A DNA stretch of 64,000 nucleotides, taken from the IMG/VR virus record IMGVR_UViG_3300032291_002123, positions 1 to 64,000 of that record, one strand, 5' to 3'. The stretch comes from a virus. Positions 49,667 through 64,000 of this stretch are shown here, piece by piece (the stretch's first letter is position 1; every line of letters starts with the position of its first letter). Made by a program: the position numbers and the translations under genes. The notes beneath the pieces are model-generated. The model had not been told where the DNA came from and did no database searches. It saw nothing but the letters and a program-made list of their open reading frames with translations.

Positions 49667-50221
49667 AATGTATTACTTTAGCACGAAAGTTCGAATGGTA
49701 TTTCTTTGGAAAAATTTTTGGGGGATTCTTATGCTACAGAGGGCGTTACGGTTTCGTTATAATAACTTTTTACTGACGGCAAAAATGATACATTAACGTA
49801 TTTTGGATTTGTTGCGTGAGAGGGCAGCGGTTATATTTCGACGCTCCCAGAAACGTTTCCGGAAACCATTTGATTGGTCAAAGGTCGAATTGTTTGGATG
49901 CGAATGACATTTGATTGATGTCGAGTTGCGATGGTGAAGTCAGGTTGTCAATGTTGCTATGTCATAAAAATGGATGACAACCTGTTCAGGTCGGGAATCG
50001 GCAATCGGCTACTTTCGCTTTGATTGTATCAATCAACAATCATTAGGAAGCAAACGATTATTTGTATTCTTGATGAGAGTGAATCTATGACATAAGAATT
50101 GACATAACTAATAAGCACTAAACAAAAGCAAAAGCAATTCGGCAATCAGAGAGATTTACTTTGATGCTAGTGAATTACAAAAGCCATAGGGGTCTTAGAT
50201 GATTGGCATCACTAACAAAGT

Positions 50222-50251
50222 TGATGAGTGTGATGAGTGATGAGTGATGAG
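50222..50251 (+). repeat. TGATGAG x4 short direct repeat in non-coding segment
   Basis: Copies at 50222, 50231, 50238 and 50245; one more at 50071. Confidence 0.8.
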
Positions 50252-50358
50252 TAGAACTATTACATAAGGATAGAGATAGGTCATCCGCATCTGAGGTCAT
50301 CAATCACATAATGATTTTTATTTGTTAGGTGATAGAAGTCGGGTAAGGTAATCCTTAC

Positions 50359-50387
50359 TTGACATCAAACATAGATGCCCATAACCT
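50359..50387 (+). promoter_or_regulatory. Sigma70/SigA-type promoter for the phosphatase
   Basis: TTGACA-N17-TAACCT. Confidence 0.65.
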
Positions 50388-50429
50388 TGATACTGACACC
50401 ATAAACAAAATCAAAAGGATGAAGCACTA

Positions 50430-50966
50430 ATGAATGACAATGACGGCGCACAATCGGCAAGCGATACCAGAGAATCATTTGCGGCAATAGACCGCAGAAC
50501 TTATCCGAAGTATACGCCCGTATGGTCAGAGATTCTGCCAGGCTTATGGCAAGGCGGCACATTAGATTCTGATAAGCACAATCAATACGCCGTACCGCTA
50601 ATCTCAAAGAGAGAGTTCGATTCGGTATTTACTTTGTATGCTCACGCCAATCCTGTTGATTGGTTTGTGAAAGAGTTTCGATTTGGGTTTATGGATAGCG
50701 ATGATACTGAGTTTGACACGGCACTACTAAAAAGAGTTGTTGCTCTTGCTCACGGCGATTGGAAGCGTGGCGAGAAAGTTCTCATTAGATGTCAAGCAGG
50801 TCTCAACCGCTCAGGCATAATCACCGCACTAGTTCTTATTCGTGATGGTCATTCTCCGAGCGAAGCAATTACTCTAATGAGAGCGAAGCGGAACGATTGG
50901 GTTCTATTCAATCCACACTTTGAGAAGTGGATTCTCAAACAATCACCGCAAGAGTGGCAAGACTAG
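50430..50966 (+). CDS. Dual-specificity (Cys-based CX5R) phosphatase
   Basis: SEILPGLWQGG; P-loop VLIRCQAGLNRS; AITLMRAKR..NPHF. The only convincing plus-strand gene. Confidence 0.85.
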   Translation: MNDNDGAQSASDTRESFAAIDRRTYPKYTPVWSEILPGLWQGGTLDSDKHNQYAVPLISKREFDSVFTLYAHANPVDWFVKEFRFGFMDSDDTEFDTALLKRVVALAHGDWKRGEKVLIRCQAGLNRSGIITALVLIRDGHSPSEAITLMRAKRNDWVLFNPHFEKWILKQSPQEWQD

Positions 50967-52351
50967 CGAAGTCTAAACAAACTCGAACGAGGGTCAGCAA
51001 GTTTCTTACTACCCATCGAGCGAGCAGTAATCTTTCCGCCAACGAACCCGGCAGGTGGCTTGATTAGTAAAGCCGTAAGAGCGTGAACAAGCGCATCAAC
51101 TCGGTCAGGTGATTTGCCCTCACCCGGAATCCAAGAATACATTTGTGATTCGAGGTCTACGAGGTAGCCAACGTGATGAACACGCCCTTGCTCATAAGCA
51201 AGAGTTACGGGTTCGGCTCTCAGCGCTTTGCCGTATTTGCTATGAACCTCTAACACTTTGATGGTCGGGTCAATCGCATTGATGGCATTGCGAACTAGCG
51301 CACCTCCTTGGTTCACCTCGGCGATAACCGGGCAACCCCATTTGCGAGCCATAGCCACAACTTTGTTAGCCCAGACCTCAGGCGAACCTAACACCGAAGC
51401 ATCCTCCAACACCCAAGCATTACGCTTATACAAGTCTCGCTCACCCGTCGATGAAACAACTACGATGCCACATTCATCACGAGGGTTCTCCGCAACTGAT
51501 GGGTCTACACCGATACAACGAAGTGGGGTGTTAGGTGGGTAAGTAGATTGTCTGTGCTTCTCGATGAGTTCCTCTGTCCATAGCGCACCCTCGACAGCAT
51601 CAAGCATCTCTCCATAAAGTTCTTGCTGTGCCAATCGAGTTCCAGCATAGACACCTGTAATCGCATCAATGTATGAGTTCGAGAGGTTGCCCGAGTTATC
51701 CATAGTCGAGCCACGAGTAATCACTACTCTGCCAGACTTAGCCTCCTCGATAAGTTTGTAAAGCAACGGCACACGCTTAGGTGTGGTGGTCACTAAGATT
51801 TGTGGGTTAGAGCCTAGACGAGTTCCAACTCGCAAGTTGTCGAACGCTGTCATACCGGCAGCATCAGGTGTCTGTCTCCAAGCAGCAATCTCATCGCCCC
51901 AAGCGTGAGTGAACTGAGGACCACGAAGTGAGTCAGGTTCATCCGCAGTAAAGCAAGTTGCTGTATTGCCATTGGGCCAAGTCAATCGTCGCTTAGATGG
52001 TTCGTAGAGTGGTCGCTCACTAGGTGGCGAGACATTCATAATCCCAGACTCACCCTCGACGATAACATCTCGCACATCCGCCGCAGTTCTAGCAACAAGA
52101 GCGAAACGCCTTTGCCCCGTGGTCGTGTATTTCGCTTGGTCTCGCACCCATTCGGCTGCCAGCCTAGTCTTACCGAATCCACGCCCAGCCATTACTAGCC
52201 AGATGTTCCAATCGCCCTCGGGTGTTTGCTGTTCAGGTCTACCCCAGACACTCCAATCCCATAGCAACGAGTCGGCATCCATACCAGATAAAGCCAACGC
52301 TCTTTCGTCGTCAGGCAGTTCAGCGAGAAGTTCCATAATACTTTTAGACAT
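50963..52351 (-). CDS. terL: Terminase large subunit
   Basis: Walker A AGRGFGKT, Walker B AWGDE, coupling motif TTTP, nuclease GVDP..DECG..EVNQGG..SPDRVDAL. Confidence 0.95.
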   Translation of the reverse strand: MSKSIMELLAELPDDERALALSGMDADSLLWDWSVWGRPEQQTPEGDWNIWLVMAGRGFGKTRLAAEWVRDQAKYTTTGQRRFALVARTAADVRDVIVEGESGIMNVSPPSERPLYEPSKRRLTWPNGNTATCFTADEPDSLRGPQFTHAWGDEIAAWRQTPDAAGMTAFDNLRVGTRLGSNPQILVTTTPKRVPLLYKLIEEAKSGRVVITRGSTMDNSGNLSNSYIDAITGVYAGTRLAQQELYGEMLDAVEGALWTEELIEKHRQSTYPPNTPLRCIGVDPSVAENPRDECGIVVVSSTGERDLYKRNAWVLEDASVLGSPEVWANKVVAMARKWGCPVIAEVNQGGALVRNAINAIDPTIKVLEVHSKYGKALRAEPVTLAYEQGRVHHVGYLVDLESQMYSWIPGEGKSPDRVDALVHALTALLIKPPAGFVGGKITARSMGSKKLADPRSSLFRLR

Positions 52352-52363
52352 AGGTCTATTGTA

Positions 52364-52630
52364 TTACTGATTCTCCCTAAGCATTAGAGTCAAACCGAGC
52401 GCAGTTAGTTCAACGCTCACCGCAATCAACGCCTCAATCCGAGCGTTCATCCTCGCTATGTATGGCGGTGGTTTTGGGTGTCCATCATTTAGCGAGTCTT
52501 GGGTTTGGCTTATCAACTTACTGAACAGCGCACAATACATCTCGCAATGAACCGAGTGGGTAATCTCACCCCATTCGATTTCGCTGTTGTATTTTTCGTA
52601 TAGGTCTTTTGTCATTTTATTCATAATCAA
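52364..52630 (-). CDS. Hypothetical protein
   Basis: 88-aa ORF downstream of a promoter motif. Confidence 0.55.
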   Translation of the reverse strand: MIMNKMTKDLYEKYNSEIEWGEITHSVHCEMYCALFSKLISQTQDSLNDGHPKPPPYIARMNARIEALIAVSVELTALGLTLMLRENQ

Positions 52631-52653
52631 AATGTATCACGCACCTCTGACAT
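52631..52653 (-). promoter_or_regulatory. ATGTCAG-N10-TACATT promoter
   Basis: Member of the repeated promoter class. Confidence 0.55.
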
Positions 52654-52662
52654 TCTGAGATA

Positions 52663-52696
52663 AAGAAAGACCCCAACCGAAGTCGAGGTCTTTCTT
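52663..52696. terminator. Intrinsic terminator-like hairpin
   Basis: AAGAAAGACC...GGTCTTTCTT. Confidence 0.65.
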
Positions 52697-52706
52697 GGTT
52701 GTCCGA

Positions 52707-53255
52707 TTAGGCAACTCGGTTCTTGCTGTTGATTGGTTTGTATACCTTAGAGGTAGCGTTAGGCGCAGGTTTGTATCCATAGCGAGCAAGTCGGAATCGA
52801 ATTGCCCCGTGAGATACGCCTAGTCGCTTTGCCAATCGGTAGAGCGTAACTCCATCTATGCTGTGCGCTTGGTTCAGCAAGCGAGTGTATTCCTCTGCCT
52901 CAGCACGATACCTAGGCGAGTGAGAGCGAACCTGTTGCGCTAGCGGTTGTAGTTCGAGCAGACGAGTTAGAATCTCGTCAGACGGCTCAACATACTCACG
53001 CTTGATTTTCTCAGGGTGGAATGGTGGTGTCGGAATGATGTAGTCGTCTCCTAGTTCAAGACCGGGAGATTTCATTTCGATAATCTGTCGGATACGCTCA
53101 CGAGAGATACCGCAAGCATTTGCGATTGATTGAAGTGTCCAACCCATCGCTCTCAACTTGCGAACATACTCGTTGCGCTCGTCTCCGTCTTTGATTGTAA
53201 GAATCTTTGCTCTTACCTCAGGCGGTAGAGTGATTTGTCTTTTCATTTGGTTCAT
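52707..53255 (-). CDS. Double HTH DNA-binding protein (paralog of 49163..49666)
   Basis: GWTLQSIANACGISRERIRQI and GVTLYRLAKRLGVSHGAIRFRL. Confidence 0.75.
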   Translation of the reverse strand: MNQMKRQITLPPEVRAKILTIKDGDERNEYVRKLRAMGWTLQSIANACGISRERIRQIIEMKSPGLELGDDYIIPTPPFHPEKIKREYVEPSDEILTRLLELQPLAQQVRSHSPRYRAEAEEYTRLLNQAHSIDGVTLYRLAKRLGVSHGAIRFRLARYGYKPAPNATSKVYKPINSKNRVA

Positions 53256-53331
53256 TTGTCTGTCCTTATGTTGTTGTTTCTAGTTTAGATGGTTTGTTCA
53301 GTTCGTCAAGAGTTGTATGCTCTTGGCTAAC

Positions 53332-53700
53332 TTAGTCAATAATCAATTTCACCTTGTCATCTCCATCAAAGACGGCAAGTAAGGTTGCTTCATCAACCAC
53401 GCCCGTGATTTGTAATCCGTTTTTCTCTTGGAATAACATAATGTCGCTCTTAGTAGCATCACCGAACCAGCCCTCTTTGTCTTTGAGAGCAAGTGTGAAG
53501 CCCAACTCGGCAAGTCTCTGCTGTAAGTAGTAGACACTCACCGAACGCTTAGAGATTGGGTTCTTGAATACAATCGCAGATAGGCGAACCTCAGCGATGT
53601 CGTCAAGTTTTATCCCAGCCTCAACCAATTTCCGCTCTTGGTGAGCATAAACTTGGTCTAAGGATACGGGAATAGGCACTTTGTATCGCTTTTCGGTCAT
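53332..53700 (-). CDS. Peptidoglycan-binding domain protein
   Basis: VYYLQQRLAELGF..GWFGDAT...FQEKNGLQITGVVDEATL, a PG_binding_1 pattern. Confidence 0.75.
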   Translation of the reverse strand: MTEKRYKVPIPVSLDQVYAHQERKLVEAGIKLDDIAEVRLSAIVFKNPISKRSVSVYYLQQRLAELGFTLALKDKEGWFGDATKSDIMLFQEKNGLQITGVVDEATLLAVFDGDDKVKLIID

Positions 53701-53870: not shown

Positions 53871-53912
53871 CTTTTTTCTCCTTTTTAGAGGTCGGCAGCA
53901 CTACCCCAAGCA

Positions 53913-53935
53913 AAGGGCCGCTGTTTTTCCACGCA
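53913..53935 (+). repeat. Bipartite motif AAGGG-N7-TTTTCCACGCA, copy 1
   Basis: aaggg ccgctgt ttttccacgca. Confidence 0.85.
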
Positions 53936-54038
53936 TTTTGTTTCTTTATTATGATTTTCTGTATAACATAATACAAACCTCCATAAATAGCAAGCAATCC
54001 GAGCAGAGATAGCACGATAATTAGTTCCATTTGAGTTC

Positions 54039-55034
54039 CTAACTCCTAACCAATGTATTCGAGTAGATGTCTTTGACAACATTTGCCCAGATTCTAGGCG
54101 TGTGGGTCTCGGCTTGGTATCCGCCAGCCCCGCCAATCAACACTCGCCCCTTACAATGCTTGTTAGCAAGGTCAGCGACAACACTTGAAGCATAGCGGTA
54201 GCCATCGTAGGTGTATTTCAAGCCCCAGCCCTCGCCCTCGTGTCCATCTGCCCCTGTTGCGAGCAGAATTACATCAGGCTCATACTCGTCAATCTTTTCG
54301 GCAATCAGGTCAATAGCCCAAGCCAACGCCTCGTCGCCCTCTCCTCGCTGTAAGTTGAAGTTATACCAATGCTTGTCAGGGTCAGAGTATTCGTAGTTGC
54401 CTAGGTCATCCATCCCTCGCAACCAAGTGTCTGAGTGAACAGGGTAGACTCCGTGTCCGTGAATCGAGAAGGTGGGTATGTCCGTATCCTCTAAGAGATT
54501 CTGAACGCCGTCGCCAGCGTTTACATCCCAATCGATGTAGGCAACTTTCAAGCCAGCCTTACGAAACTCTTTCGCAGCCCAAGCGAAGTCATTGAATACA
54601 CAGAAGCCCTCAGACCAGCCGTATTGTGCGTGGTGTTTAGCACCCTGTGGATTGAAGCCAACCTGAGTTTCGCCAGCAATCATTTTCTCAACAAGGCGAG
54701 CAGTTCCAGCGAACATCTGAAAGGCGGTGTTGCCCATCTCTGTGCGCTTTCCATCCCAATCGTGAGACACTCCCTTATCAATTACCTCGCTCACGAACTT
54801 AGGGTCGTGGATAGTCTCCAACGCCTCCCTATCGCCATCACGGATTTCGGGTTCGATAATCTCCACATTATCCGCACCAAGTTCCTCGGTAATGTATTGG
54901 GTAGCCAACTTAGCCCTAATCGGTTTCGTAGGGTGCGAGCCATCGCCAGAGCCTAACTGCCATTTGAGGTAGTCGTCGCTGTAAGCGATTGTTAGTTTAT
55001 TTGGGTATGTCAATCTGTCCTTTTTTTCTTTCAT
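54039..55034 (-). CDS. Zn-dependent HDAC/AcuC-family deacetylase
   Basis: HPTKPIR, GAKHHA..SEGFCVFND, YIDWDVNAGDG, SIHG, GADGH and GAGGY motifs. Confidence 0.9.
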   Translation of the reverse strand: MKEKKDRLTYPNKLTIAYSDDYLKWQLGSGDGSHPTKPIRAKLATQYITEELGADNVEIIEPEIRDGDREALETIHDPKFVSEVIDKGVSHDWDGKRTEMGNTAFQMFAGTARLVEKMIAGETQVGFNPQGAKHHAQYGWSEGFCVFNDFAWAAKEFRKAGLKVAYIDWDVNAGDGVQNLLEDTDIPTFSIHGHGVYPVHSDTWLRGMDDLGNYEYSDPDKHWYNFNLQRGEGDEALAWAIDLIAEKIDEYEPDVILLATGADGHEGEGWGLKYTYDGYRYASSVVADLANKHCKGRVLIGGAGGYQAETHTPRIWANVVKDIYSNTLVRS

Positions 55035-55043
55035 CGTGTTTCT

Positions 55044-55072
55044 AAGTTATCAAATAAACTAGAAAAAGTCAA
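55044..55072 (-). promoter_or_regulatory. SigA-type promoter for the deacetylase
   Basis: TTGACT-N17-TAACTT. Confidence 0.65.
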
Positions 55073-55076
55073 GTTT

Positions 55077-55099
55077 TGCGTGGAAAATCCTTGACCCTT
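55077..55099 (-). repeat. Bipartite motif copy 2
   Basis: Plus strand tgcgtggaaaa tccttga ccctt. Confidence 0.85.
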
Positions 55100-55305
55100 T
55101 GTAATAAGCCTTATGTAATAACTTAGTCTCCGAGGTGTTCGTGCCTATCGTGCTTGTTCAGCCAATCGGTAAGCCAGAATAAGCCAGCCAGCATTATGAC
55201 GATAGAGCCAATAACAGCACCAAAAATTAGTAGAGTTTCCATAGCCATAATCTAGCATAAAAGAAACCCCCTGACATAAGTCAAGGGGTCGTGTCTTTTT
55301 AGGGT

Positions 55306-55551
55306 CTAGCCCTCCACAGAAGCCTCATAGAAAGGCGGAAGTGGTTGAGTTGATGCCAGAGCCTTGCCGAACTTTTCTATCGCCAAGCAGGTGTCAGCAA
55401 TCCAAGTGTCGTAAAGCACCTTGTCCACACCTGAGTGGGCTTCGTTCTTTTTTGCTTTCAACTCGGTAAGCGAGAACAAAAGAACGCTTTTCATAAATTG
55501 TAGTTCTTGGGTCTCGAACTCTACTGAGGTTGAGGTTTTTGTTTCTGTCAT
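55306..55551 (-). CDS. Hypothetical protein
   Basis: 81-aa ORF with GGAG RBS. Confidence 0.6.
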   Translation of the reverse strand: MTETKTSTSVEFETQELQFMKSVLLFSLTELKAKKNEAHSGVDKVLYDTWIADTCLAIEKFGKALASTQPLPPFYEASVEG

Positions 55552-55565
55552 TTCTTTCTCCGTTT

Positions 55566-55994
55566 CTAGTTGTTTTTGTTGTTTAGGTAGTTGATGTAGC
55601 CGTCGCTGTTGATTTCTGCCTGATACTCGTCGGCATACACCCTCGGGTTAGTTTCTACTCTTGGGTAAGCACAGGTAGAGCAAAGGTCGTAGTCGATGTC
55701 AATCCCAACTCCGCAAACGCACTTGCGCTCCTCCAACTCCTCGGGTTCGGGTTCGATGTCTCGGGTATCGCCCTCGTCGATAATCGGGTTAGCCAATCGC
55801 TCTCGCTCATACTCCTCACCCTGAGCAACTCCAACCTCGTAGCCCGTGTCATAGGCGAGGTCGAAAATCATACGGGTGTTGTAGAGGTGTAGGTATGGTT
55901 CGGTCTTGTTATACCAATCCCAGAACGCAGCCTCTCGCACTCGTGCTTTTCGGGTGCTTACATCTAGGAAAGCGTTTACTTCGTCTTGTGTCAT
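55566..55994 (-). CDS. Hypothetical protein with CxCG..CxxC zinc finger
   Basis: KCVCGV..LCSTCA; AAAGGA RBS. Confidence 0.65.
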   Translation of the reverse strand: MTQDEVNAFLDVSTRKARVREAAFWDWYNKTEPYLHLYNTRMIFDLAYDTGYEVGVAQGEEYERERLANPIIDEGDTRDIEPEPEELEERKCVCGVGIDIDYDLCSTCAYPRVETNPRVYADEYQAEINSDGYINYLNNKNN

Positions 55995-56015
55995 TTTTGT
56001 CCTTTCTACAATACT

Positions 56016-56044
56016 AGGTTAGTCCGTGTCGAAGTGTTTGTCAA
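56016..56044 (-). promoter_or_regulatory. SigA-type promoter
   Basis: TTGACA-N17-TAACCT. Confidence 0.65.
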
Positions 56045-56252
56045 GTTCACTCGCCAAATAATTTACGGCAATCGCAAGAATTAGGAAACACCCACCGATT
56101 AGCAGATTTGAGAATACAAGAGCATAACCAAAAGTTCCGCTAAACAGGATTGCCAGAGCAACTCCTCGAAGTAGGATTACCAATCCCTCCCGATTGTTCT
56201 TGCTCACTTGTTCCTCTGCGGTCTGCTCTTGGCGATTTGATTTATAGCCCAA
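56019..56252 (-). CDS. Small membrane protein (start uncertain)
   Basis: Two hydrophobic segments. Confidence 0.5.
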   Translation of the reverse strand: MGYKSNRQEQTAEEQVSKNNREGLVILLRGVALAILFSGTFGYALVFSNLLIGGCFLILAIAVNYLASELDKHFDTD

Positions 56253-56348
56253 GCAAAAGCCAACGCCCCAGATACAATCAGCCCAATAGCAGCCACTAAA
56301 AGTAGTTCTCTCATTTTGTCCTTTCGTCGTTTCTATGTTAGCACATTA

Positions 56349-56615
56349 TCACAGATAAGGCAACATACCAAGCCGTCTCGACAATTCTGCCTCACATTGC
56401 GTTGAGAGGTCGCCAAAGACCTCCTCAGCGTTCGGGATAGTTCCTGACCTGTCTAGGTAAGTAATCCCAGCGATAAGGCTCACGAGAGTGTTTACCGAGA
56501 ACTCAATCTCATTGTCAAAGTCTAAAAATCCAGCGGTGAAGTTGTCGTTCACTCGATTGACAAAGGCGACGATTTCGTCGTCTGTCATTTCGGTAATGCT
56601 TTTTTCGGCAGCCAT
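56349..56615 (-). CDS. Hypothetical protein
   Basis: 88-aa ORF with RBS. Confidence 0.6.
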   Translation of the reverse strand: MAAEKSITEMTDDEIVAFVNRVNDNFTAGFLDFDNEIEFSVNTLVSLIAGITYLDRSGTIPNAEEVFGDLSTQCEAELSRRLGMLPYL

Positions 56616-56654
56616 AGTAAGCCTTTCTTTGTTTATTATTTTAGCAGATTATTC

Positions 56655-56677
56655 TGCGTGGAAAATCCCCTACCCTT
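56655..56677 (-). repeat. Bipartite motif copy 3
   Basis: Plus strand tgcgtggaaaa tccccta ccctt. Confidence 0.85.
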
Positions 56678-56726
56678 TACGACAGAGCCGAACTCTCGCT
56701 CGGCTTGTCGGTGGGTGGGTGTATCC

Positions 56727-56945
56727 TTACCCGAAAAGATTTTTCCAGCAGGGTGGGCAATACCCTGATTGGAAACGCTCACGCTGGTCGGCGGTGAGAT
56801 TAGGGAAAGCGTTTTGTATCAACGCCCCCTGATTGTAATCGAACAGGTTCTTGGAACTGACCTCAACCTGAATAGTTCCCTCACACTTAGGGCAAGGCTT
56901 AGAGGTTGCGAGATACTCGCCCTCTTTGATTTTCTCGAACTTCAT
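56727..56945 (-). CDS. Small zinc-ribbon protein
   Basis: CPKC...IQNAFPNL..RE..SGYCPPCW. Confidence 0.65.
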   Translation of the reverse strand: MKFEKIKEGEYLATSKPCPKCEGTIQVEVSSKNLFDYNQGALIQNAFPNLTADQRERFQSGYCPPCWKNLFG

Positions 56946-57107
56946 TTTGCTCTCCTTTTTATTTTCTAACTAAACACGAACTCGGTAAACTCGCCAAGCG
57001 AGATTTCGCCACGGATAAGTTGCCATAGCAAAAGTGTCTGCCTCTTTTTTCGTAGCGAACTGATAAGGCTGAACACCTTGACCACGAACCTCAATAACCC
57101 AAATCAT

Positions 57108-57596
57108 TTACACCAACTCCTGTTCATCTTGTAAAACCACAAGCGAGACCACGCCTCGCTCTTTGATTGGGTAGAACCCATACTGACCACGAGCAAAGTG
57201 GTAGTAGACATTAGCCAACTTGTAGCCCTTGCTCTCGTAGAACTTTTGCTGTTTGCCGTAAGAATTAGCAACCGAAACATTGACCCACGATACAGAACCA
57301 TCTGGGTTGTTTACTCGCCACACCTTGCCATACTTGCCGTCTACAATTTTTGCGTCTACGACATTACCCTCCAAGTCGAGCAAAGCGTTTTCGTAATCAA
57401 CGCCGTGATTGCGAGCCAAGCGAGCCTCACGGATGTGTTCACGATACATACCCTCGTGATAAAAAGCGTAGCCGTCGTTATCCAAAATACGCTGTTTGTC
57501 TAACTCAACAGCGTGAGCGTTCTGCTCACACTCGACAGCGTGAGCCTCCCACTCTTGTGGCGAAACTCCCTCACGATACCAAATCGAAACTGACAT
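57108..57596 (-). CDS. Hypothetical protein
   Basis: 162 aa with AGGAG RBS; VDAKIVDGKYGKVW. Confidence 0.7.
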   Translation of the reverse strand: MSVSIWYREGVSPQEWEAHAVECEQNAHAVELDKQRILDNDGYAFYHEGMYREHIREARLARNHGVDYENALLDLEGNVVDAKIVDGKYGKVWRVNNPDGSVSWVNVSVANSYGKQQKFYESKGYKLANVYYHFARGQYGFYPIKERGVVSLVVLQDEQELV

Positions 57597-57616
57597 TTGT
57601 ATCTCCTTTCACTAAA

Positions 57617-57646
57617 ATAGTATCAAAGACTACTGACATTTGTCAA
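57617..57646 (-). promoter_or_regulatory. Promoter with ATGTCAG element
   Basis: TTGACA-A-ATGTCAG-N10-TACTAT. Confidence 0.7.
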
Positions 57647-57648
57647 GT

Positions 57649-58098
57649 CTAAAAGCCATTGTTTTTCGCACAGACAGGGCCGATACCCTCGGCAACGCTC
57701 TTAGGGTCTGTCAGGAAAATACCGCAGACACAGCACATACCTGTTTCCATACCAAAAGCCTTAGCCTGTTCCAGCGACATTTTGTGTTCTGGTTTTAGGC
57801 GATAGATAGCCCCAGCCTCATACTCGAAACCGCCCTCTAATGCGTTCAGTTTCTTAGCGTAAAGACGGCTACTCATTTTGCTCGGGTGAACTCGGTAGAT
57901 GTCGCCGTTCGGCATACGATACATACCAACCTCGCCGACAATTCCAGCAGCCCGAGGTGCTTTTAGTAGCGAACCGATTAGGTCGCTAGCGTCTTTCGAG
58001 GTGAGAACCTCAAAGTTGATTTCCTCGCCATTGTAGACACGCTCGGTTAGGAGTTTCTCGATGAACTCCACCTGTCGAACTGATACCTTGTTAGCCAT
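57649..58098 (-). CDS. DUF6011-like zinc-finger protein
   Basis: CCVCGIFLTDPKSVAEGIGPVCA. Confidence 0.7.
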   Translation of the reverse strand: MANKVSVRQVEFIEKLLTERVYNGEEINFEVLTSKDASDLIGSLLKAPRAAGIVGEVGMYRMPNGDIYRVHPSKMSSRLYAKKLNALEGGFEYEAGAIYRLKPEHKMSLEQAKAFGMETGMCCVCGIFLTDPKSVAEGIGPVCAKNNGF

Positions 58099-58125
58099 TT
58101 GCTATCCTCTCTCTCTTACAACTAA

Positions 58126-58155
58126 AAGATAGCACACCCCCCTGACATTTGTCAA
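58126..58155 (-). promoter_or_regulatory. Promoter with ATGTCAG element
   Basis: TTGACA-A-ATGTCAG-N10-TATCTT. Confidence 0.7.
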
Positions 58156-58218
58156 TTCCTATTAGGCGTGTCGCTTATGTAATTATTTTGCCAGGCGGTT
58201 GCTAGGCTGCCTCGCTCA

Positions 58219-58241
58219 AAGGGTGGGGCTTTTTCCACGCA
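58219..58241 (+). repeat. Bipartite motif copy 4
   Basis: aaggg tggggct ttttccacgca. Confidence 0.85.
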
Positions 58242-58280
58242 AAACCAGCCAAAAATAAAAGATAGTTAGCGTAAGTAATA

Positions 58281-58315
58281 AAAAAAGAACCTTGCCTCTC
58301 GGCAAAGTTCTTTTT
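58281..58315. terminator. Bidirectional intrinsic terminator
   Basis: AAAAAAGAACCTTGCC-TCTC-GGCAAAGTTCTTTTT. Confidence 0.7.
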
Positions 58316-58328
58316 CGTGTGGTTCGGT

Positions 58329-58616
58329 TTACTCCTGCGAAAGTCGCTCGTTCATTAGAGCCAAGACCTGTCGGCTGTGAGCCAGCACTTCGGTAAGCCT
58401 CTCGACCTCGCTGTGTATTTTTAGGTCAATCACCTTTTGGGATAACTTGACCAATCCCTCCATAATTTTTATCTGCTCTGCCATAGCCCATACGATAGCC
58501 TCTCGTGGTGCGTTGGCGATTGTGGTTTCCCACTCCTCAATCGAGGTTAGTTGTTTTGACATAACTTCCTTTGGTTGTTTCGGCAAGGGGGAGATGTTCT
58601 CAATCCCCCGAGCCAA
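58329..58616 (-). CDS. Hypothetical coiled-coil protein (likely start MSKQL at 58562)
   Basis: ORF with AAGGA RBS before MSKQL. Confidence 0.55.
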   Translation of the reverse strand: MARGIENISPLPKQPKEVMSKQLTSIEEWETTIANAPREAIVWAMAEQIKIMEGLVKLSQKVIDLKIHSEVERLTEVLAHSRQVLALMNERLSQE

Positions 58617-58622
58617 GTTTTT

Positions 58623-58832
58623 TTATTTAGCGTTTGCCCAAGCAATCGCTTTGTTGATTAGAGGTAGGCAAGCCATAAAGACCAGCCAAGAGAAATACAT
58701 CACGAGCAGGTTATCCCACACGCCAGCACTTCCCGGTTCCGCACCCAGAGCCATTAGCAATAGGTTTAGAACGACATAAGCCAGAAAAATTACAGGAAAG
58801 AAAATCGTTCCTCGAACTAATCGCTTTATCAT
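58623..58832 (-). CDS. Small membrane protein
   Basis: Two hydrophobic segments; AAAGGA RBS. Confidence 0.65.
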   Translation of the reverse strand: MIKRLVRGTIFFPVIFLAYVVLNLLLMALGAEPGSAGVWDNLLVMYFSWLVFMACLPLINKAIAWANAK

Positions 58833-58853
58833 TTTTGTCCTTTCGACATTTCT

Positions 58854-58882
58854 AAGGTATCAAACCACTCGGCTTTTGTCAA
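58854..58882 (-). promoter_or_regulatory. SigA-type promoter
   Basis: TTGACA-N17-TACCTT. Confidence 0.65.
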
Positions 58883-59163
58883 GCGTTGTAGTAAGACCAA
58901 TTTCGGTGGATTTCCTCTTGCTCGTATTCACGAATACATCTCGCACAATGTTGCTCGTCGTCTTTCGTGCTGAAAGCAATTTCCTCACCGCAGTTCGCAC
59001 AGCCCATTTCGGTAGGCGTAGGTTCGTGAGGTGCGTTTCCGTCTGCCTCCTCACAGATTGTTTCGTCGCCCCACACCTTGTCGCTAATCCAAATGCTCGG
59101 CGATACTTCTGTGATTACCTCTCCACAATGTAGGCACTCGTTTTTCTTGGTCATAGTTATCAT
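58879..59163 (-). CDS. Cys-rich zinc-finger protein
   Basis: CLHC, CANC and CARC motifs. Confidence 0.6.
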   Translation of the reverse strand: MITMTKKNECLHCGEVITEVSPSIWISDKVWGDETICEEADGNAPHEPTPTEMGCANCGEEIAFSTKDDEQHCARCIREYEQEEIHRNWSYYNA

Positions 59164-59184
59164 CTCCTAATTTCTAAGGTAGCA

Positions 59185-59472
59185 CTACCTACTGACATAC
59201 TCGGTTTCCAATACTTCTGTTAGTAGTCGGTCATAGTCGTATTCACCCAAACGGAAACCAGCCTCGACAATAATCTCTGCCAACTTCACGCCCAAGCCAT
59301 CTGCGACAGATTGGATTACTTCGCTCGACATCTCTTTTACGCCACGCTCTACTTCGCTTAGGTAGCCGATAGAGACATTTGATTTGGCGGATAGTTGTCT
59401 TAGTGTCCAGCCTCTCTGCGTTCGTAGGTCTCGAACTACATCACCTACGGCAACTCGCAACATCACGACCAA
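59185..59472 (-). CDS. XRE-family HTH regulator, ClgR-like
   Basis: LRVAVGDVVRDLRTQRGWTLRQLS..SNVSIGYLSEVERGVKEMSSE closely follows the actinobacterial ClgR pattern. Confidence 0.75.
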   Translation of the reverse strand: MVVMLRVAVGDVVRDLRTQRGWTLRQLSAKSNVSIGYLSEVERGVKEMSSEVIQSVADGLGVKLAEIIVEAGFRLGEYDYDRLLTEVLETEYVSR

Positions 59473-59870
59473 ACACCAGCCAAATACTTTTCGGCGGCTA
59501 GGTTTGCCTTTTCAGCAAAATCGATTGCCACATCTAGTTCGTGAAAAGGTTCGCTGAACCACTCGGTATCTGTTTCGTGTAGAACTACGAACCAAGAATT
59601 ATTTACCCAACAAAAAACTTCCTCGTCTTTGCCAGACCAATCGCTAAGTTCCTTGTCGGTCTTGATACCGAACTCCTCTAACTTATCGGTGTAGCGGATT
59701 ACTTCGTCGTGTCCATTTTTATTCACAGCGTTGATACGCATTTCACCCTCACGATAAACCGCAAAAGGATTGTCCTCGCTTGACCACACCAATTCAGTTC
59801 CAACTTCGTTGGTGTAGAACGCACTATCCTGTCGCTTTGGGTCAGTTCCGTATTTCGTCAGTTTTGTCAT
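59463..59870 (-). CDS. Hypothetical protein
   Basis: 135 aa with AGGAG RBS. Confidence 0.7.
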   Translation of the reverse strand: MTKLTKYGTDPKRQDSAFYTNEVGTELVWSSEDNPFAVYREGEMRINAVNKNGHDEVIRYTDKLEEFGIKTDKELSDWSGKDEEVFCWVNNSWFVVLHETDTEWFSEPFHELDVAIDFAEKANLAAEKYLAGVWS

Positions 59871-59884
59871 TTTGTTTTTTCTCC

Positions 59885-60169
59885 TTATAGATAGAACTTG
59901 TCGTCAAACTTTTGCGAGGATAAAAGTCGAAACTCCACTAACTTTTTTCCATTTAGTTTTGACCGAACGATTTTTTTCTCTGCGTGTTTCTGCGTGTTGG
60001 CGATAAGCGATACTTGTCGTATTCGTGGAACGCCGATGATTTCGTAGGTGTAGAGGTTAGCCACTATTGATACCCCTCTCGGTGAAAATCTCCAAGTGAT
60101 AGTTCTCCAAGAGGATTGACGCAGGGGCTTGGTTAGAGCCAGCAACGCTGTATCCACTCGGCAACTCAA
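59885..60169 (-). CDS. Hypothetical basic protein (real start probably near 60064)
   Basis: Upstream part overlaps the next ORF. Confidence 0.45.
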   Translation of the reverse strand: MSCRVDTALLALTKPLRQSSWRTITWRFSPRGVSIVANLYTYEIIGVPRIRQVSLIANTQKHAEKKIVRSKLNGKKLVEFRLLSSQKFDDKFYL

Positions 60170-60335
60170 TCAACGCCTCTGGGTTGCCAGCGATAGTTTC
60201 CTCAACTGCTTTTAGGCAAGCAGGGTAGAGAACCTCGTTGATTGGCTCATAGAAATTGGTTGATAGGTGTAGCGAGATTTTCTTGTCTAATGGCAAATCG
60301 CTAGTTGCTATGCCTATGGCATTTATCAATCCCAT
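60057..60335 (-). CDS. Hypothetical protein
   Basis: 92 aa with AAAGGA RBS. Confidence 0.65.
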   Translation of the reverse strand: MGLINAIGIATSDLPLDKKISLHLSTNFYEPINEVLYPACLKAVEETIAGNPEALIELPSGYSVAGSNQAPASILLENYHLEIFTERGINSG

Positions 60336-60383
60336 AATTGTCCTTTCGTCTTTTTCATCTCTTACCTAATTAGGTTATCAGGT

Positions 60384-60602
60384 TTATTGCTCTGTGTCAA
60401 TCTCGGTAGAGTTCGGCACTTGTCCTACAAAGGTCAGCATAGGACCTGCGTAGGTTGGGTCGTTCACGAGGTTCGAGAAATACGACACGAGTTCCTTAGA
60501 ACTCTCTGCCACAAACTTGACGGCACTCGCCTCGTCTGTGATTGTGCCAGACTTCTCGACCTCGAATACGAACTCGACATTTACTTTGTAAGTTTCAGCC
60601 AT
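60384..60602 (-). CDS. Hypothetical protein
   Basis: 72 aa with AGGA RBS. Confidence 0.6.
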   Translation of the reverse strand: MAETYKVNVEFVFEVEKSGTITDEASAVKFVAESSKELVSYFSNLVNDPTYAGPMLTFVGQVPNSTEIDTEQ

Positions 60603-60645
60603 TTTATTTCCTGCTTTCAGTTGGTTCTATTTTACACCAACTGCC

Positions 60646-61128
60646 TTATGTGATTAGTGAGTTTAGGTGAATACGAGCATCAAGGTAGATGTCCTCGTTT
60701 TCTCCTTCTCCAACGCTCTCCCACTCCTCGCTTTCCTTGTTCCAAACATCAGCACTACCAAACAAAGCCTCTGCTCTGTCGTCGTCTAGGAAAGTAATAG
60801 TTGGCTTGCCGTTGTTCATCTCTACCGCAACCACGAAATAAACCTGCTTGGTGTCTGGGAAATCCATACCAAACAGACTTTCGAGGCTGTCGTATTGGTC
60901 AAGATTTTCATCAAGCCACTCCTCGAACTCCTTGGTGTATTCGGTATCGGTGATTAGCCAATTACCATCATTGTAAGAATTATCCTTGCTCAATTCCAGC
61001 CATTGTTTAGTTCCTCGCCAGAGGAACGCAACACTTCGCTTTTGATTGTCGGCGTAGTCCTCAACGCTTTTGATTTCTACATCTGGGATAAATGCGTTGT
61101 TGGGTGTTGCGTAAATGTCGTATGTCAT
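60646..61128 (-). CDS. Hypothetical acidic protein
   Basis: 160 aa, coupled to the upstream ORF. Confidence 0.65.
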   Translation of the reverse strand: MTYDIYATPNNAFIPDVEIKSVEDYADNQKRSVAFLWRGTKQWLELSKDNSYNDGNWLITDTEYTKEFEEWLDENLDQYDSLESLFGMDFPDTKQVYFVVAVEMNNGKPTITFLDDDRAEALFGSADVWNKESEEWESVGEGENEDIYLDARIHLNSLIT

Positions 61129-61322
61129 CAGTACTCCTTCTGTTCGATTGTTTCCGTGCCACCAAGAAACTCGAAGTCGTCTTGGTCGTGTTTTAGTAGA
61201 ACCATACCGAAATCGGCTAGGTCAGCATTTCCAAAGAAAATGTGGAAGTGATTGAGAGCAACTCGTGGGTCGTCTGCCTCAACTTCATACTGCTCTGTTT
61301 TTGTAATTACAAATGTCGCCAT
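61128..61322 (-). CDS. Hypothetical protein
   Basis: 64 aa with AAAGGA RBS. Confidence 0.6.
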   Translation of the reverse strand: MATFVITKTEQYEVEADDPRVALNHFHIFFGNADLADFGMVLLKHDQDDFEFLGGTETIEQKEY

Positions 61323-61351
61323 TGTTATCGTGTCCTTTCCTTGACATTTCT

Positions 61352-61380
61352 AGGTTAGCAAATTATGTGCGATAAGTCAA
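61352..61380 (-). promoter_or_regulatory. SigA-type promoter
   Basis: TTGACT-N17-TAACCT. Confidence 0.65.
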
Positions 61381-61382
61381 TC

Positions 61383-61655
61383 TTATTTACGGCGTGGTCT
61401 GCCACGACCAGCCTTGATGTTTCGGCAGATTATCTCGGCTCGTGGTGCGAACCACTTGTCGAGTTCCTCTGGGTCAAAGAGAATAACATTGTTAGTAGTT
61501 CGAGCGACTTCCTTTGGTCTGGTAGTCGAGTTCTCGTCATAGTTCACAAAGTAGAGAACTCTCGCAGCACTAATGTCGTATTTCTTGGCGAGGTCTTTGT
61601 AAGACCAGAGTTGCTTTCCATCTAGGAAATAAGTAATTCGTTTTTCGAGTTTCAT
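61383..61655 (-). CDS. Putative DNA-binding protein (HTH/excisionase-like) with C-terminal AT-hook
   Basis: Start MKLEKR after AAAGGA; WSYKDLAKKYDIS..LFDPEELDKWF; GRGRPRRK. Confidence 0.6.
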   Translation of the reverse strand: MKLEKRITYFLDGKQLWSYKDLAKKYDISAARVLYFVNYDENSTTRPKEVARTTNNVILFDPEELDKWFAPRAEIICRNIKAGRGRPRRK

Positions 61656-61677
61656 TTGTATCCTTTCTACATTACAG

Positions 61678-61707
61678 AGTATGCCACACACCCCTGACAT
61701 TTGTCAA
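61678..61707 (-). promoter_or_regulatory. Promoter with ATGTCAG element
   Basis: TTGACA-A-ATGTCAG-N10-CATACT. Confidence 0.7.
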
Positions 61708-61712
61708 ACTCA

Positions 61713-61735
61713 AAGGGTAGCGAGTTTTCCACGCA
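61713..61735 (+). repeat. Bipartite motif copy 5
   Basis: aaggg tagcgag ttttccacgca, followed by a partial TCCACGCA. Confidence 0.85.
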
Positions 61736-61760
61736 AATCCACGCAAAAAAAATAAAGCAT

Positions 61761-61789
61761 AAAAAAGCACCCCGACTTTCGTCGGGGTG
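61761..61789 (-). terminator. Intrinsic terminator
   Basis: CACCCCGAC-TTTC-GTCGGGGTG with a U-tract on the minus strand. Confidence 0.75.
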
Positions 61790-61803
61790 GGAAGCGACTT
61801 ATC

Positions 61804-62127
61804 TCACTTTACGAGAGAAATAAAGTCGTAAGGGTTCTCATACGAAGCGGCTTCAAACGCTTCTGGGAACGCACTTTTCAGCACATCACGCTTCAAATCG
61901 ACACGGCTTCTGCGCTCAATCTTGAACGCTGGAACACCGCCGACATTAGCGAACTCCGCTTTTCCAATCGCAGAACGGAGAACCTGTTCAGCAACAGCCT
62001 TGCGAGCCTTTGCTTCCTTTTCCGCATTTGCGGCTTCGGCAAAGTCAGCAATCGCCTTGCGAACTTCGGGGTTGAACCCAACTTCAACCGAACTTCCTGG
62101 AACAAAAGCAACTAATACTTTCGACAT
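61804..62127 (-). CDS. Hypothetical protein (likely start MSKVLV)
   Basis: AAAGGAG RBS before MSKVLV; the longer ORF call overlaps a promoter. Confidence 0.6.
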   Translation of the reverse strand: MSKVLVAFVPGSSVEVGFNPEVRKAIADFAEAANAEKEAKARKAVAEQVLRSAIGKAEFANVGGVPAFKIERRSRVDLKRDVLKSAFPEAFEAASYENPYDFISLVK

Positions 62128-62164
62128 CTTTATCAACTCCTTTCCGTGGGACCCCCACATTTTT

Positions 62165-62194
62165 ATTATGTCATAGACCCCTGACATTAGTCAA
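62165..62194 (-). promoter_or_regulatory. Promoter with ATGTCAG element
   Basis: TTGACT-A-ATGTCAG-N10-CATAAT. Confidence 0.7.
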
Positions 62195-62344
62195 GTCTAT
62201 CGCTCGTTGTCTTTTGCGACAGCGATTTGGATTTCGATTAGGGCTTCCTCGGCGTTTATCTCTCGTGCTTCAAATCGGTCAAGGATTGCCACAAACTCGG
62301 CAGCAAGTAGTTCGTTCATTTTTCATCACCTCTCTTACAAAGAA

Positions 62345-62367
62345 AGTATCGCACCACCCCCTGACAT
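62345..62367 (-). promoter_or_regulatory. ATGTCAG-N10-GATACT promoter with poor -35
   Basis: Same spacing as the other copies. Confidence 0.55.
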
Positions 62368-62380
62368 AAACAATTTTTAG

Positions 62381-62403
62381 AAGGGTAAGGGATTTTCCAC
62401 GCA
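62381..62403 (+). repeat. Bipartite motif copy 6
   Basis: aaggg taaggga ttttccacgca. Confidence 0.85.
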
Positions 62404-62412
62404 AATCCAGGC

Positions 62413-62442
62413 AAAAAAGAAACCCCGTGCTTTCACACGGGG
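62413..62442 (-). terminator. Intrinsic terminator after NlpC/P60 gene
   Basis: CCCCGTG-N6-CACGGGG with a U-tract on the minus strand. Confidence 0.7.
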
Positions 62443-62455
62443 CTTCCTTTTGTGG

Positions 62456-63061
62456 CTAGTTCGTCTGTTCTATCAGCCGAACAAATGTTGCGGTGCTGTG
62501 TCGAAACGACGGGTCATCGAGCGAGATTATGGAAGTGCTTGTGCCTTTCCTAAATCCTGCGTGTATGACCTTGTTATCTCCAATGTAGATAGACGAGTGA
62601 TAGTAGGACTTCGACCCTTTGTAGCCGAATACCACTATGTCGCCAATCGCCGGGGTTCTCACCTTTGTTCCCGAATTGCCTTGCTTATTGGCTGAGTGTT
62701 CCACAGGAACTCCCAACTGCCCATAAGCCCAATAGACCATACCCGAGCAATCCCAGCCCTGCGGTGTGTGTCCTGAAAATACATACCAAGTCTTTCCAAC
62801 TCGGCTTTTCAGTTGTTTCACCACAGACAGAACTCTTTCGGTATTGTCTGCTAGTCGCTCTGCTCTCCGCACTTCCAACTCCAACAATGTCTGTGGGTGT
62901 TTTGGTTTGTCAAACAGATTGGCTAGATTTACTTGCTTATGAGCAACAGGAGTTTCCATACTCCTTGTCGCTCTGTCGCTTGCGCTCGCATTTTCTCCAT
63001 ACGGAAAACTTCCCGTAGTCATAGAGATAATGACAAGTCCTATTGCTAGCAACCATTTCAT
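62456..63061 (-). CDS. Secreted NlpC/P60 cell-wall peptidase
   Basis: Signal peptide MKWLLAIGLVII; YVFSG..GWDCSG..GDIVVF..HSSIYIG..VIHA. Confidence 0.9.
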   Translation of the reverse strand: MKWLLAIGLVIISMTTGSFPYGENASASDRATRSMETPVAHKQVNLANLFDKPKHPQTLLELEVRRAERLADNTERVLSVVKQLKSRVGKTWYVFSGHTPQGWDCSGMVYWAYGQLGVPVEHSANKQGNSGTKVRTPAIGDIVVFGYKGSKSYYHSSIYIGDNKVIHAGFRKGTSTSIISLDDPSFRHSTATFVRLIEQTN

Positions 63062-63213
63062 AGTCAGCCTACCTTTCCTTGCGTTAGTACTTGGCTGTGT
63101 TTTGTCTTGGTTCTCCCAAATCGGTATTCAGTTGTGTTCCAATTCTACACCCAAAACGACTTGACAAACAAGATAGTATGTGAAAGATTGTCGTCCTGGA
63201 ACATTGGCTAAAT

Positions 63214-63236
63214 TGCGTGGAAAATAAAGCACCCTT
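63214..63236 (-). repeat. Bipartite motif copy 7
   Basis: Plus strand tgcgtggaaaa taaagca ccctt. Confidence 0.85.
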
Positions 63237-63245
63237 GTAAAAATC

Positions 63246-63268
63246 ACCCCCGAGCGTGTGTCGGGGGT
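63246..63268 (-). terminator. Terminator-like hairpin
   Basis: ACCCCCGA-N7-TCGGGGGT. Confidence 0.6.
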
Positions 63269-63273
63269 TGGGG

Positions 63274-63471
63274 TTATACTTCTTTTTCTTTTTTGATTTT
63301 TTCGATTGTCTTTTCCAATCCGTGTTTCTCAATCTCACGGAGAACATAATCAACTCCGTCGTTCCAACCCTGACAAAACATTTCATAGTTCTTTTGTCGT
63401 ACTGGGTCTGCGTATAGCGGTATGGTTTTCTTTTCGCTCACTTGTCTATTCCTTTCACTTTTAGTATCCAA
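63274..63471 (-). CDS. Hypothetical protein (start uncertain)
   Basis: Short ORF in the minus-strand operon. Confidence 0.5.
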   Translation of the reverse strand: MDTKSERNRQVSEKKTIPLYADPVRQKNYEMFCQGWNDGVDYVLREIEKHGLEKTIEKIKKEKEV

Positions 63472-63659
63472 TCAAGCACTTCGCCAAAGAAATACCTTTG
63501 GGGGCTTGGTATCGGTAATGGCTTTGGAAAGCCGGGGTCGTCTTTGTATTTCAGTAGAAAACTCGGCGACACTTTTACGGCGTAGAACTTCCTTGTGTAA
63601 TGAGCAATCAAGTTCAGGCTCATAAGAGTTCCACGCCACTCGTCGTTTGGTTTTTCCAT
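63438..63659 (-). CDS. Hypothetical protein, possibly AlpA/excisionase-like
   Basis: DPGFPKP..RYFFGEVLDWI; AGGAG RBS. Confidence 0.5.
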   Translation of the reverse strand: MEKPNDEWRGTLMSLNLIAHYTRKFYAVKVSPSFLLKYKDDPGFPKPLPIPSPQRYFFGEVLDWILKVKGIDK

Positions 63660-63680
63660 TGGAAACCAACTCCTAACTAA

Positions 63681-63842
63681 CTACTGAAAACGAACTTTAT
63701 TTACGAACTGCTTTGCGAAAGCAACGAACTTCTTGACCAACTTCTCGCCGAACTCGTAAACCTTGTCGCCGGGAGATTTGTAGAAACCAACTTCTGCTTG
63801 TTCAGCAGCCAAGAACTCAGCACCAGAGCGATAAACACCCAT
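63681..63842 (-). CDS. Small hypothetical protein (53 aa, below ORF-track cutoff)
   Basis: MGVYRSGAEFLAAEQAEVGFYKSPGDKVYEFGEKLVKKFVAFAKQFVNKVRFQ; AAAGGTGG RBS; promoter upstream. Confidence 0.55.
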   Translation of the reverse strand: MGVYRSGAEFLAAEQAEVGFYKSPGDKVYEFGEKLVKKFVAFAKQFVNKVRFQ

Positions 63843-63872
63843 AACCAATCACCACCTTTCCCTTACATACAA

Positions 63873-63902
63873 AGTATGACATAGACCTACGACATTTGTC
63901 AA
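63873..63902 (-). promoter_or_regulatory. Promoter with variant ATGTCGT element
   Basis: TTGACA-A-ATGTCGT-N10-CATACT. Confidence 0.7.
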
Positions 63903-63942
63903 GTCCTGAGCAAACTATTTTTCCGTGTCGTTTCGGCGCTCG

Positions 63943-63965
63943 CTTATACCACCACCCCCTGACAT
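63943..63965 (-). promoter_or_regulatory. ATGTCAG-N10-TATAAG promoter-like element
   Basis: Same spacing; no canonical -35. Confidence 0.5.
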
Positions 63966-64000
63966 CAACTAATCTGTCGCATAAGAAATAACCCCACTAA

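Follow-up and report, generated by a model that had tools for sequence, protein, structure and literature searches.

An internal island purged of restriction-type motifs in an uncultured lake actinophage, and its probable exposure to the host before the rest of the genome

Why would a phage genome be emptied of a whole set of short, restriction-type motifs over one region and keep hundreds of the same sites elsewhere? The question is raised by the virus record IMGVR_UViG_3300032291_002123, a linear IMG/VR contig of 102,065 bp (CheckV completeness 76%), whose bases 1–64,000 are the window analysed here; the study phage is called G000 where it has to be told apart from its relatives. A sequence-only reading of the window had placed a sharp onset of motif avoidance at ~49.86 kb and taken the DNA to its right for the arm that is probably injected first. 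We describe the avoidance as a bounded island that recurs at one place in related genomes, and argue that it probably marks the DNA that host restriction enzymes meet before the phage can be protected.

A bounded purge acting on double-stranded DNA

Motifs were counted in 2-kb bins across the window. To the left of ~49.86 kb, TGCA, CATG, TTAA, ACGT, ATAT and GAAGA/TCTTC are present at 2–24 per bin. From 49,860 to the window end there is no TGCA, CATG, TTAA, GAAGA/TCTTC or ATAT and a single ACGT, at 51,171, against 63 TGCA, 26 CATG, 67 TTAA, ~66 GAAGA/TCTTC, 41 ATAT and 61 ACGT predicted for these 14.1 kb from the left-hand rates. The step that had been claimed is thus plain in the binned counts. 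The last sites before it are ACGT at 49,853, ATAT at 49,833, TTAA at 49,793, TCTTC at 49,354, TGCA at 49,286 and CATG at 49,158, from which the step is ~100–700 bp wide.

49860..64000, window part of the island, which continues to about 75,500–76,700 in contig coordinates

Over the whole contig, the purged zone runs from 49,860 to about 75,500–76,700 (~26 kb), after which sites return. It is therefore an internal island of the assembled map and no arm that reaches the contig end. The first site past the island for each motif was:

TCTTC, 75,497
GAAGA, 75,677
ACGT, 75,711
CATG, 75,752
TTAA, 76,156
ATAT, 76,765
TGCA, next site already at 69,504 (purge over a nested sub-range)

Between 49,861 and 75,490 the five motifs TTAA, ATAT, CATG, GAAGA/TCTTC and ACGT were observed once in all, against ~460 expected (118 + 65 + 55 + 103 + 120); the island's own Markov model expects 50–73 sites per 4-mer. 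A longest-gap scan over all 4- and 5-mers and gapped palindromes, together with targeted counts, added the following:

CTNNAG, site-free 49,734–68,946, 112 expected
GTNAC, site-free 52,846–75,698, 85 expected
GANTC, site-free 54,497–68,867, 59 expected
ACNGT, site-free 49,748–65,159, 55 expected
ACSGT, site-free to 76,069, 56 expected
CASTG, site-free 47,205–66,224, 33 expected
TCNGA, site-free 55,129–64,246, 30 expected

GACGC, GAGTC, GTCAAC, CTGAAG, TCCAGA, GAGCAC, CGTCC and AAATTC are also strongly depleted in the island. In all, some fifteen motif families that are independent of one another are purged, TGCA, CTNNAG, GTNAC, GANTC, ACNGT and CASTG among them over nested sub-ranges. As a control, k-mers with at least 15 expected copies that drop to ≤10% were counted in four 25.6-kb blocks: there were 73 in the island and 0 in each of the three control blocks.

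Most of the purged motifs are, as far as we know, classical Type II/IIS targets (MseI, NlaIII, MaeII, HpyCH4V, MboII, MaeIII, HinfI, Hpy188I, HpyCH4III, TspRI, HgaI, PleI and AcuI). We know of no restriction enzyme for ATAT or CTNNAG. The purge of these two motifs, which is as complete as that of the classical sites and is seen also in the related genomes G002, G003 and G004, may point to undescribed enzymes of lake Actinobacteria.

Another set of motifs is avoided throughout the G000 contig, with GATC and AGCT at 0, CGCG at 1, GGCC at 15 and GTAC at 67 against 287 expected; TGCGCA, GGCGCC and GAGCCC are each at 0. Of the three motifs that had been said to persist across the step, TCGA and CTAG do so and GTAC is rare genome-wide. 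In G004, GATC and AGCT have normal frequencies even within its own island, and G002 has no ACGT and no GCGC across its whole genome. Since these counts differ from genome to genome, the genome-wide and the island-only avoidance sets are separate and lineage-specific.

The island depletion holds relative to the segment's own Markov expectation and on both strands, and it is achieved through synonymous codon choice. For glutamate before aspartate or glutamate, GAG is used 41 times and GAA never in the island, versus 43 and 196 times outside, in agreement with the switch to GAG that had been noticed earlier; GAA makes up 43% of all island glutamate codons. Histidine before a codon starting with G is CAC 39 times and CAT never in the island, versus 65 and 22 times outside. 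Codon junctions of the form xTT-AAx number 0 in the island and 188 outside, and those of the form xAC-GTx 1 and 149. The loss covers palindromes and both orientations of asymmetric motifs, genes in both orientations and non-coding DNA. Because both strands are purged and synonymous codons switch with their context, the target of selection is double-stranded DNA.

The gene for the large terminase subunit (terL) allows position to be separated from gene content. Its protein is 78–87% identical across five genomes. In G000 and G003, where the gene lies inside the island, it has no TTAA, CATG or TGCA, as had been remarked for G000, and no ATAT; the copies of G002 and G004, which are outside the island, contain these motifs. 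From this orthologue comparison, the purge follows position and not gene identity or expression class.

Relatives, borders and contents of the island

By the closest matches of its portal protein, the phage is an uncultured lake actinophage and not a crAss-like phage. The portal tblastn gave Actinomycetia phage DSL-LC01, assembled from a lake metagenome (72% identity), and Microbacterium phage Pumpernickel (63%), followed by other large Microbacterium, Arthrobacter and Gordonia siphoviruses; on this result a first guess of crAss-like identity, made from giant proteins and PHROG numbers, was dropped. The structural module is colinear with that of Pumpernickel (terminase, portal, giant proteins, capsid, tail).

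A portal-based search yielded 80 loci, 33 of them usable for a comparison across the portal-operon promoter. Depletion of 4-bp palindromes was found in 51 motif-locus cases on the island side and in 2 on the structural side; the effect is present in 19 of the 33 loci and its polarity is never reversed. Nine further large genomes (G001–G004 and G006–G010, 77–137 kb) were compared with G000. All ten have an island, 15–32 kb long and at the same syntenic place. The islands begin 0.1–2 kb past a conserved endolysin gene and extend toward terL and portal. Those of G004, G007 and G008 avoid TTAA, TGCA, ATAT, ACGT, CATG, GTAC, GANTC and CTNNAG; those of G002, G006 and G009 avoid ATAT, AATT and GTAC; and those of G001 and G010 avoid ACGT, TGCA, CGTCC and GAGGA. 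In G003, neighbouring sub-islands have different motif sets. The portal-operon promoter marks the inner border in G000, G001 and G003; in G010 the border is near it, and in the others it is earlier and staggered. Recurrence with changing motif sets at fixed landmarks favours local selection over a one-off import or a chimeric contig.

The inner border and one of the promoters within the island are marked by these elements:

49781..49867, minus strand, conserved promoter-like element (GGAAAC ... CGTTAAGGTATCATTTTT), 87 bp, conserved in 13 relatives
49667..50429, non-coding region of 760 bp with many short direct and inverted repeats, lying at the sharp border
55210..55284, minus strand, putative early promoter, TTGAC-N3-TGTCAGGGG-N-TAnnnT

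The border falls exactly at the upstream edge of the 87-bp element, which is also found at the border in G001 and is a probable promoter of the portal operon. Within the island lie all eight putative promoters of a single class, TTGACAAATGTCAGGGG-N7-8-TAnnnT, every one on the minus strand, with starts at 55,284, 57,646, 58,155, 61,707 and 62,194 in the window and at 65,222, 65,448 and 75,233 beyond it. A consensus TTGACA is followed in them by TGTCAGGGG and then by the −10 box, and each is 40–60 nt upstream of a ribosome-binding site and ATG. They resemble host sigma-A sites in their −35 and −10 parts. Given their common strand, transcription would run from the endolysin-side border toward terL and portal; examined as leading-region promoters, all eight TTGACA-type candidates, from 75,233 to 55,284, point inward. 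The contig has 14 copies of an 11-mer, TTTTCCACGCA, some in one orientation and some in the other, all intergenic and all between 53,925 and 76,020; seven are in the window (53,925–63,234). The 11-mer is usually preceded by AAGGG at about 8 nt and is not kept in the same form in relatives. Judged from these repeated elements, the island is a regulatory unit with its own set of promoters and boxes.

The island holds about 45 mostly small open reading frames (ORFs), nearly all without a family. Those with one encode a dual-specificity phosphatase, TerL, helix-turn-helix (HTH) proteins, a histone-deacetylase-family protein, an NlpC/P60 peptidase, and a MoxR-type AAA ATPase with its VWA partner. 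The genes in the window are listed below with portal, the reference outside the island.

46644..48458, minus strand, portal gene (phrog_776, E 6e-104), first large gene of the non-purged structural module
50430..50966, plus strand, dual-specificity phosphatase-like gene (PF00782, phrog_10650)
50963..52351, minus strand, large terminase subunit (terL; PHROG terminase matches), a late gene, yet purged of the island motifs
52707..53255, minus strand, double-HTH protein, homologous to gp49 of Pumpernickel and to the Zooman counterpart of gp49, both inside terminal repeats
53332..53700, minus strand, small peptidoglycan-binding-like protein with a homologue inside the Zooman terminal repeat
54039..55034, minus strand, histone-deacetylase-family protein (PF00850, E 3e-44)
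59185..59472, minus strand, Cro/CI-type HTH regulator (PF01381)
62456..63061, minus strand, NlpC/P60 peptidase (PF00877)

The phosphatase and histone-deacetylase-family genes both lie in what would be the early part of the genome. Beyond the window, the MoxR-type AAA ATPase and its 667-aa VWA-like partner (contig 70,987–74,136, minus strand) are within the island; their homologues in Pumpernickel, Zooman, Phendrix and Sixama are outside the terminal repeat, elsewhere in the genome. A conserved ORF of ~75 residues (MRHIE...; contig 75,545–75,775, minus strand), with its own −10-like box, is at or near the outer island border in G000–G003; in G000 it retains sites, and the purge starts directly after it. 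At the opposite end of the window, bases 1–5,700 look ORF-free, and tRNAs or another genetic code came under suspicion at first. They are the 3′ part of a giant tail gene on the minus strand, a minor tail protein gene like Pumpernickel gp97, which runs off the contig end and whose frame has only two stops, both TAG.

The cultured relatives are linear records that end in exact direct repeats:

Pumpernickel, exact terminal repeat of 19,963 bp
Zooman, exact terminal repeat of 17,079 bp
Mimi, exact terminal repeat of 19,868 bp
Phendrix, exact terminal repeat of 7,752 bp
Sixama, exact terminal repeat of 1,702 bp

In Pumpernickel and Zooman, whose repeats of 17–20 kb were defined by experiment, the repeat begins with a gp1-like gene and the endolysin and ends after the double-HTH gene (gp49). 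Homologues of gp1, gp5, gp13 and gp49 are in the same order in G000, at 78.0, 76.9, 70.0 and 53.2 kb, and a gene of the Zooman repeat matches G000 at 53.3–53.7 kb. The region equivalent to the repeat (52.7–78.0 kb) and the island (49.86–76.7 kb) overlap by ~90%. For G001 and G002, apparent direct terminal repeats (119 and 108 bp) were rejected as physical ends; they are circular-assembly overlaps inside genes, and the metagenomic genomes are thus collapsed circles. The ends of G003 overlap by 126 bp. Contig ends, used as a proxy for termini, were not enriched near the borders, their distances being spread and fitting short-contig statistics, and a search for contigs with two gp1-like copies, the mark of an un-collapsed repeat, found none. 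In the 19,963-bp repeat of Pumpernickel (NC_073468), MCATTC/GAATGK, a motif picked post hoc, is seen once against 22 expected and is back at 22.2 kb, which hints weakly at a purge of the repeat in a cultured relative.

Probable exposure before protection, and its rivals

Since the rest of the genome keeps hundreds of these sites at near-expected frequency, sites there must be harmless and sites in the island lethal. We think it probable, with some confidence, that the island is the phage DNA that meets host restriction enzymes before protection is possible, as does the first-step-transfer DNA of T5 or the leading region of T7; this exposure, before the remainder is shielded, is the best-supported core of what the sequence-only reading proposed. 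The island would then probably be a leading, immediate-early segment that largely coincides with a long terminal repeat collapsed in the assembly. Host RNA polymerase would read its sigma-A-type promoters at once, and the rest of the genome would become safe only once early products had acted, whether through later entry or through shielding. Selection would strip the island alone of targets of the enzymes circulating in the host population, using context-dependent synonymous codons. Exposure before protection would be the simplest cause of such a pattern.

Two polarities are compatible with the data. The end at the endolysin border may enter first, with host RNA polymerase reading inward as in T7; if so, this would account for an outer border that is fixed and sharp and an inner border that varies. 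Alternatively, the other end of the terminal repeat may enter first, with a pause in transfer ahead of the endolysin, as in T5. For the nested sub-ranges, the best explanation is that relatives exposed to different sets of enzymes swap cassettes in a mosaic fashion.

Several observations count against early exposure. In all ten genomes the gp1-like gene and the endolysin, with which the Pumpernickel and Zooman repeat opens, lie just outside the purge, and they carry sites; a second offset is that the G000 purge continues through terL up to the portal promoter. No purge of this kind is seen in the cultured relatives whose repeats are known (no 4-mer island), nor do those repeats have an excess of missing hexamer palindromes. 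Some relatives, among them L060, L064 and phage DSL-LC01, have no island. Avoidance is nested and forms no simple gradient. Among 29 island ORFs compared with PHROG and Pfam, which include nearly every ORF of at least 88 residues, there was no known anti-restriction gene and no homologue of T5 A1/A2 or dmp; an Ocr-like DNA mimic likewise had no match among the island ORFs scanned, most of which have no family. For this phage, a terminal repeat, the order in which its DNA enters and an early protective function are inferred. The 'polyprotein payload' that had been suggested as a shield is pure conjecture.

A region-limited purge would be accounted for equally if the whole genome entered at once and its bulk were shielded, either by DNA-binding proteins that are co-injected or packaged or by a modification of the DNA, with the island left bare. 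The bare stretch might have to stay free for immediate transcription, or might be a terminal-repeat copy newly made at packaging that escapes modification. Genes that could serve such a scheme exist, in that a gene for a DNA-binding protein of the packaged type (phrog_3636) and the giant polyvalent proteins adjoin portal, and candidate modification genes (a methyltransferase-like gene and a deoxyribosyltransferase/dNMP kinase) lie outside the island. To our knowledge, however, regional modification or coating of this kind has no precedent; about fifteen specificities are beyond the reach of one or two methyltransferases, hemi-modified DNA is normally resistant, and sharp borders at a promoter and just past a gene better fit a unit of transcription or entry. 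We regard this form of uneven protection as unlikely.

The island could instead owe its composition to ancestry, as a hypervariable accessory region imported repeatedly from related phages whose whole genomes are purged, with no local selection. Actinophages are pervasively mosaic, the sub-blocks of the island differ in motif sets, a few relatives (L011, L020/L021) have low motif counts on both sides of the border, and DSL-LC01 has ATAT and TTAA both at 0 throughout its first 50 kb. Mosaicism accounts for the sub-blocks but not for the purge of one region only. The island is at the same place in ten of ten large genomes, the asymmetry is 51 to 2, the conserved terL has been purged where it stands in only some of the genomes, and the motif sets are lineage-specific, yet the borders are tied to the same landmarks. 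Repeated import is, on this evidence, distinctly unlikely.

We hold it very unlikely that the purge answers something other than restriction, such as the phage's own nucleases for degrading host DNA or an RNA-level nuclease acting on early transcripts. The complete genome-wide loss of GATC and AGCT is equally compatible with a phage nuclease, and ATAT and CTNNAG have no enzyme that we know of. A phage nuclease would nevertheless demand a purge of the whole genome and not of a region, the motifs are for the most part textbook Type II/IIS sites, and the two strands are purged equally, including the plus-strand gene at 50,430–50,966 and non-coding DNA.

Least credible, and in our view hardly worth entertaining, is a chimeric assembly in which two co-occurring strains are joined at 49.86 kb: the conserved 87-bp element at the border could let an assembler pass from one strain to the other, and an exact junction search of the viral contig collection found no second contig, but many samples have given independent assemblies with the same junction architecture, no locus reverses the polarity and the gene order is that of cultured relatives.

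Significance and comparison with known systems

As a genomic signature of restriction that acts on only part of a phage genome, the island is unusually clean. If early exposure is its cause, the leading segment and the injection strategy of uncultured phages could be predicted from sequence alone, and the restriction specificities of uncultured freshwater Actinobacteria listed from their phages. For the other 80% of the genome to be safe from ~fifteen Type II specificities, some general anti-restriction mechanism would be required, which might be encoded by island genes without an assigned function or by the injected giant proteins; the ~40 small genes would be candidates for a broad function guarding about 100 kb of site-rich DNA. 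We put forward only tentatively the wider view that a clade of ~135-kb lake actinophages, perhaps with soil relatives that have 17–20 kb repeats, delivers its genome in stages, the island being a readout, from sequence alone, of first-entering DNA and a record of the pooled restriction repertoire of uncultured freshwater Actinobacteria, specificities such as ATAT and CTNNAG among them.

The principle is known from T5 and, recently, from T7-like phages; we found no paper on such islands in actinophages or at such a scale. Type I–III restriction of T5 and BF23 takes effect only through sites within the first-step-transfer terminal repeat (PMC10644984). The island resembles that system (repeat of ~10 kb) in being a block of terminal-repeat size with small early or host-takeover genes and host-type promoters, in that the remainder of the genome carries sites and is yet safe, and in the long, repeat-rich non-coding region at one border; the cultured relatives, too, have exact repeats, of 1.7–20 kb. 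It differs in its actinobacterial host, in the size of the islands (15–32 kb, about 20% of the genome) and in the purge of about fifteen 4–6-bp motifs to zero, versus a few 6-bp sites in T5. Also unlike T5, no A1/A2/dmp homologues were found and the first two genes of the relatives' repeat are outside the purge; here two-step transfer and the repeat are putative, and as regards an injection stop signal the repeat-rich 760-bp non-coding region at the inner border is all that was seen.

In T7-like phages, the leading region decides sensitivity, as shown for Murciavirus against Type I restriction-modification (PMC12455610). By analogy, restriction selection would in both cases be concentrated on first-entering DNA. 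The putative early promoters for host RNA polymerase point inward, consistent with transcription-coupled entry, and both regions are variable and rich in genes of unknown function. Unlike the T7-like case, the island has no Ocr homologue, spans tens of kb and involves many Type II motifs as opposed to a single Type I motif, and the relatives of the study phage are siphoviruses with long repeats, not podoviruses with repeats of 160 bp.

Genome-wide palindrome avoidance in phages likewise brings short palindromes below Markov expectation through synonymous changes, and G000 itself does this for GATC, AGCT, CGCG and GGCC. The ~fifteen island motifs differ from it in being strictly compartmental, with borders 0.1–1 kb wide. 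Conjugative plasmids are a different kind of element and enter as single strands. According to work cited in PMC12455610, their leading region is depleted in restriction targets and encodes early anti-defence functions, so that there, as proposed here, the DNA that enters first is the DNA in which targets are depleted.

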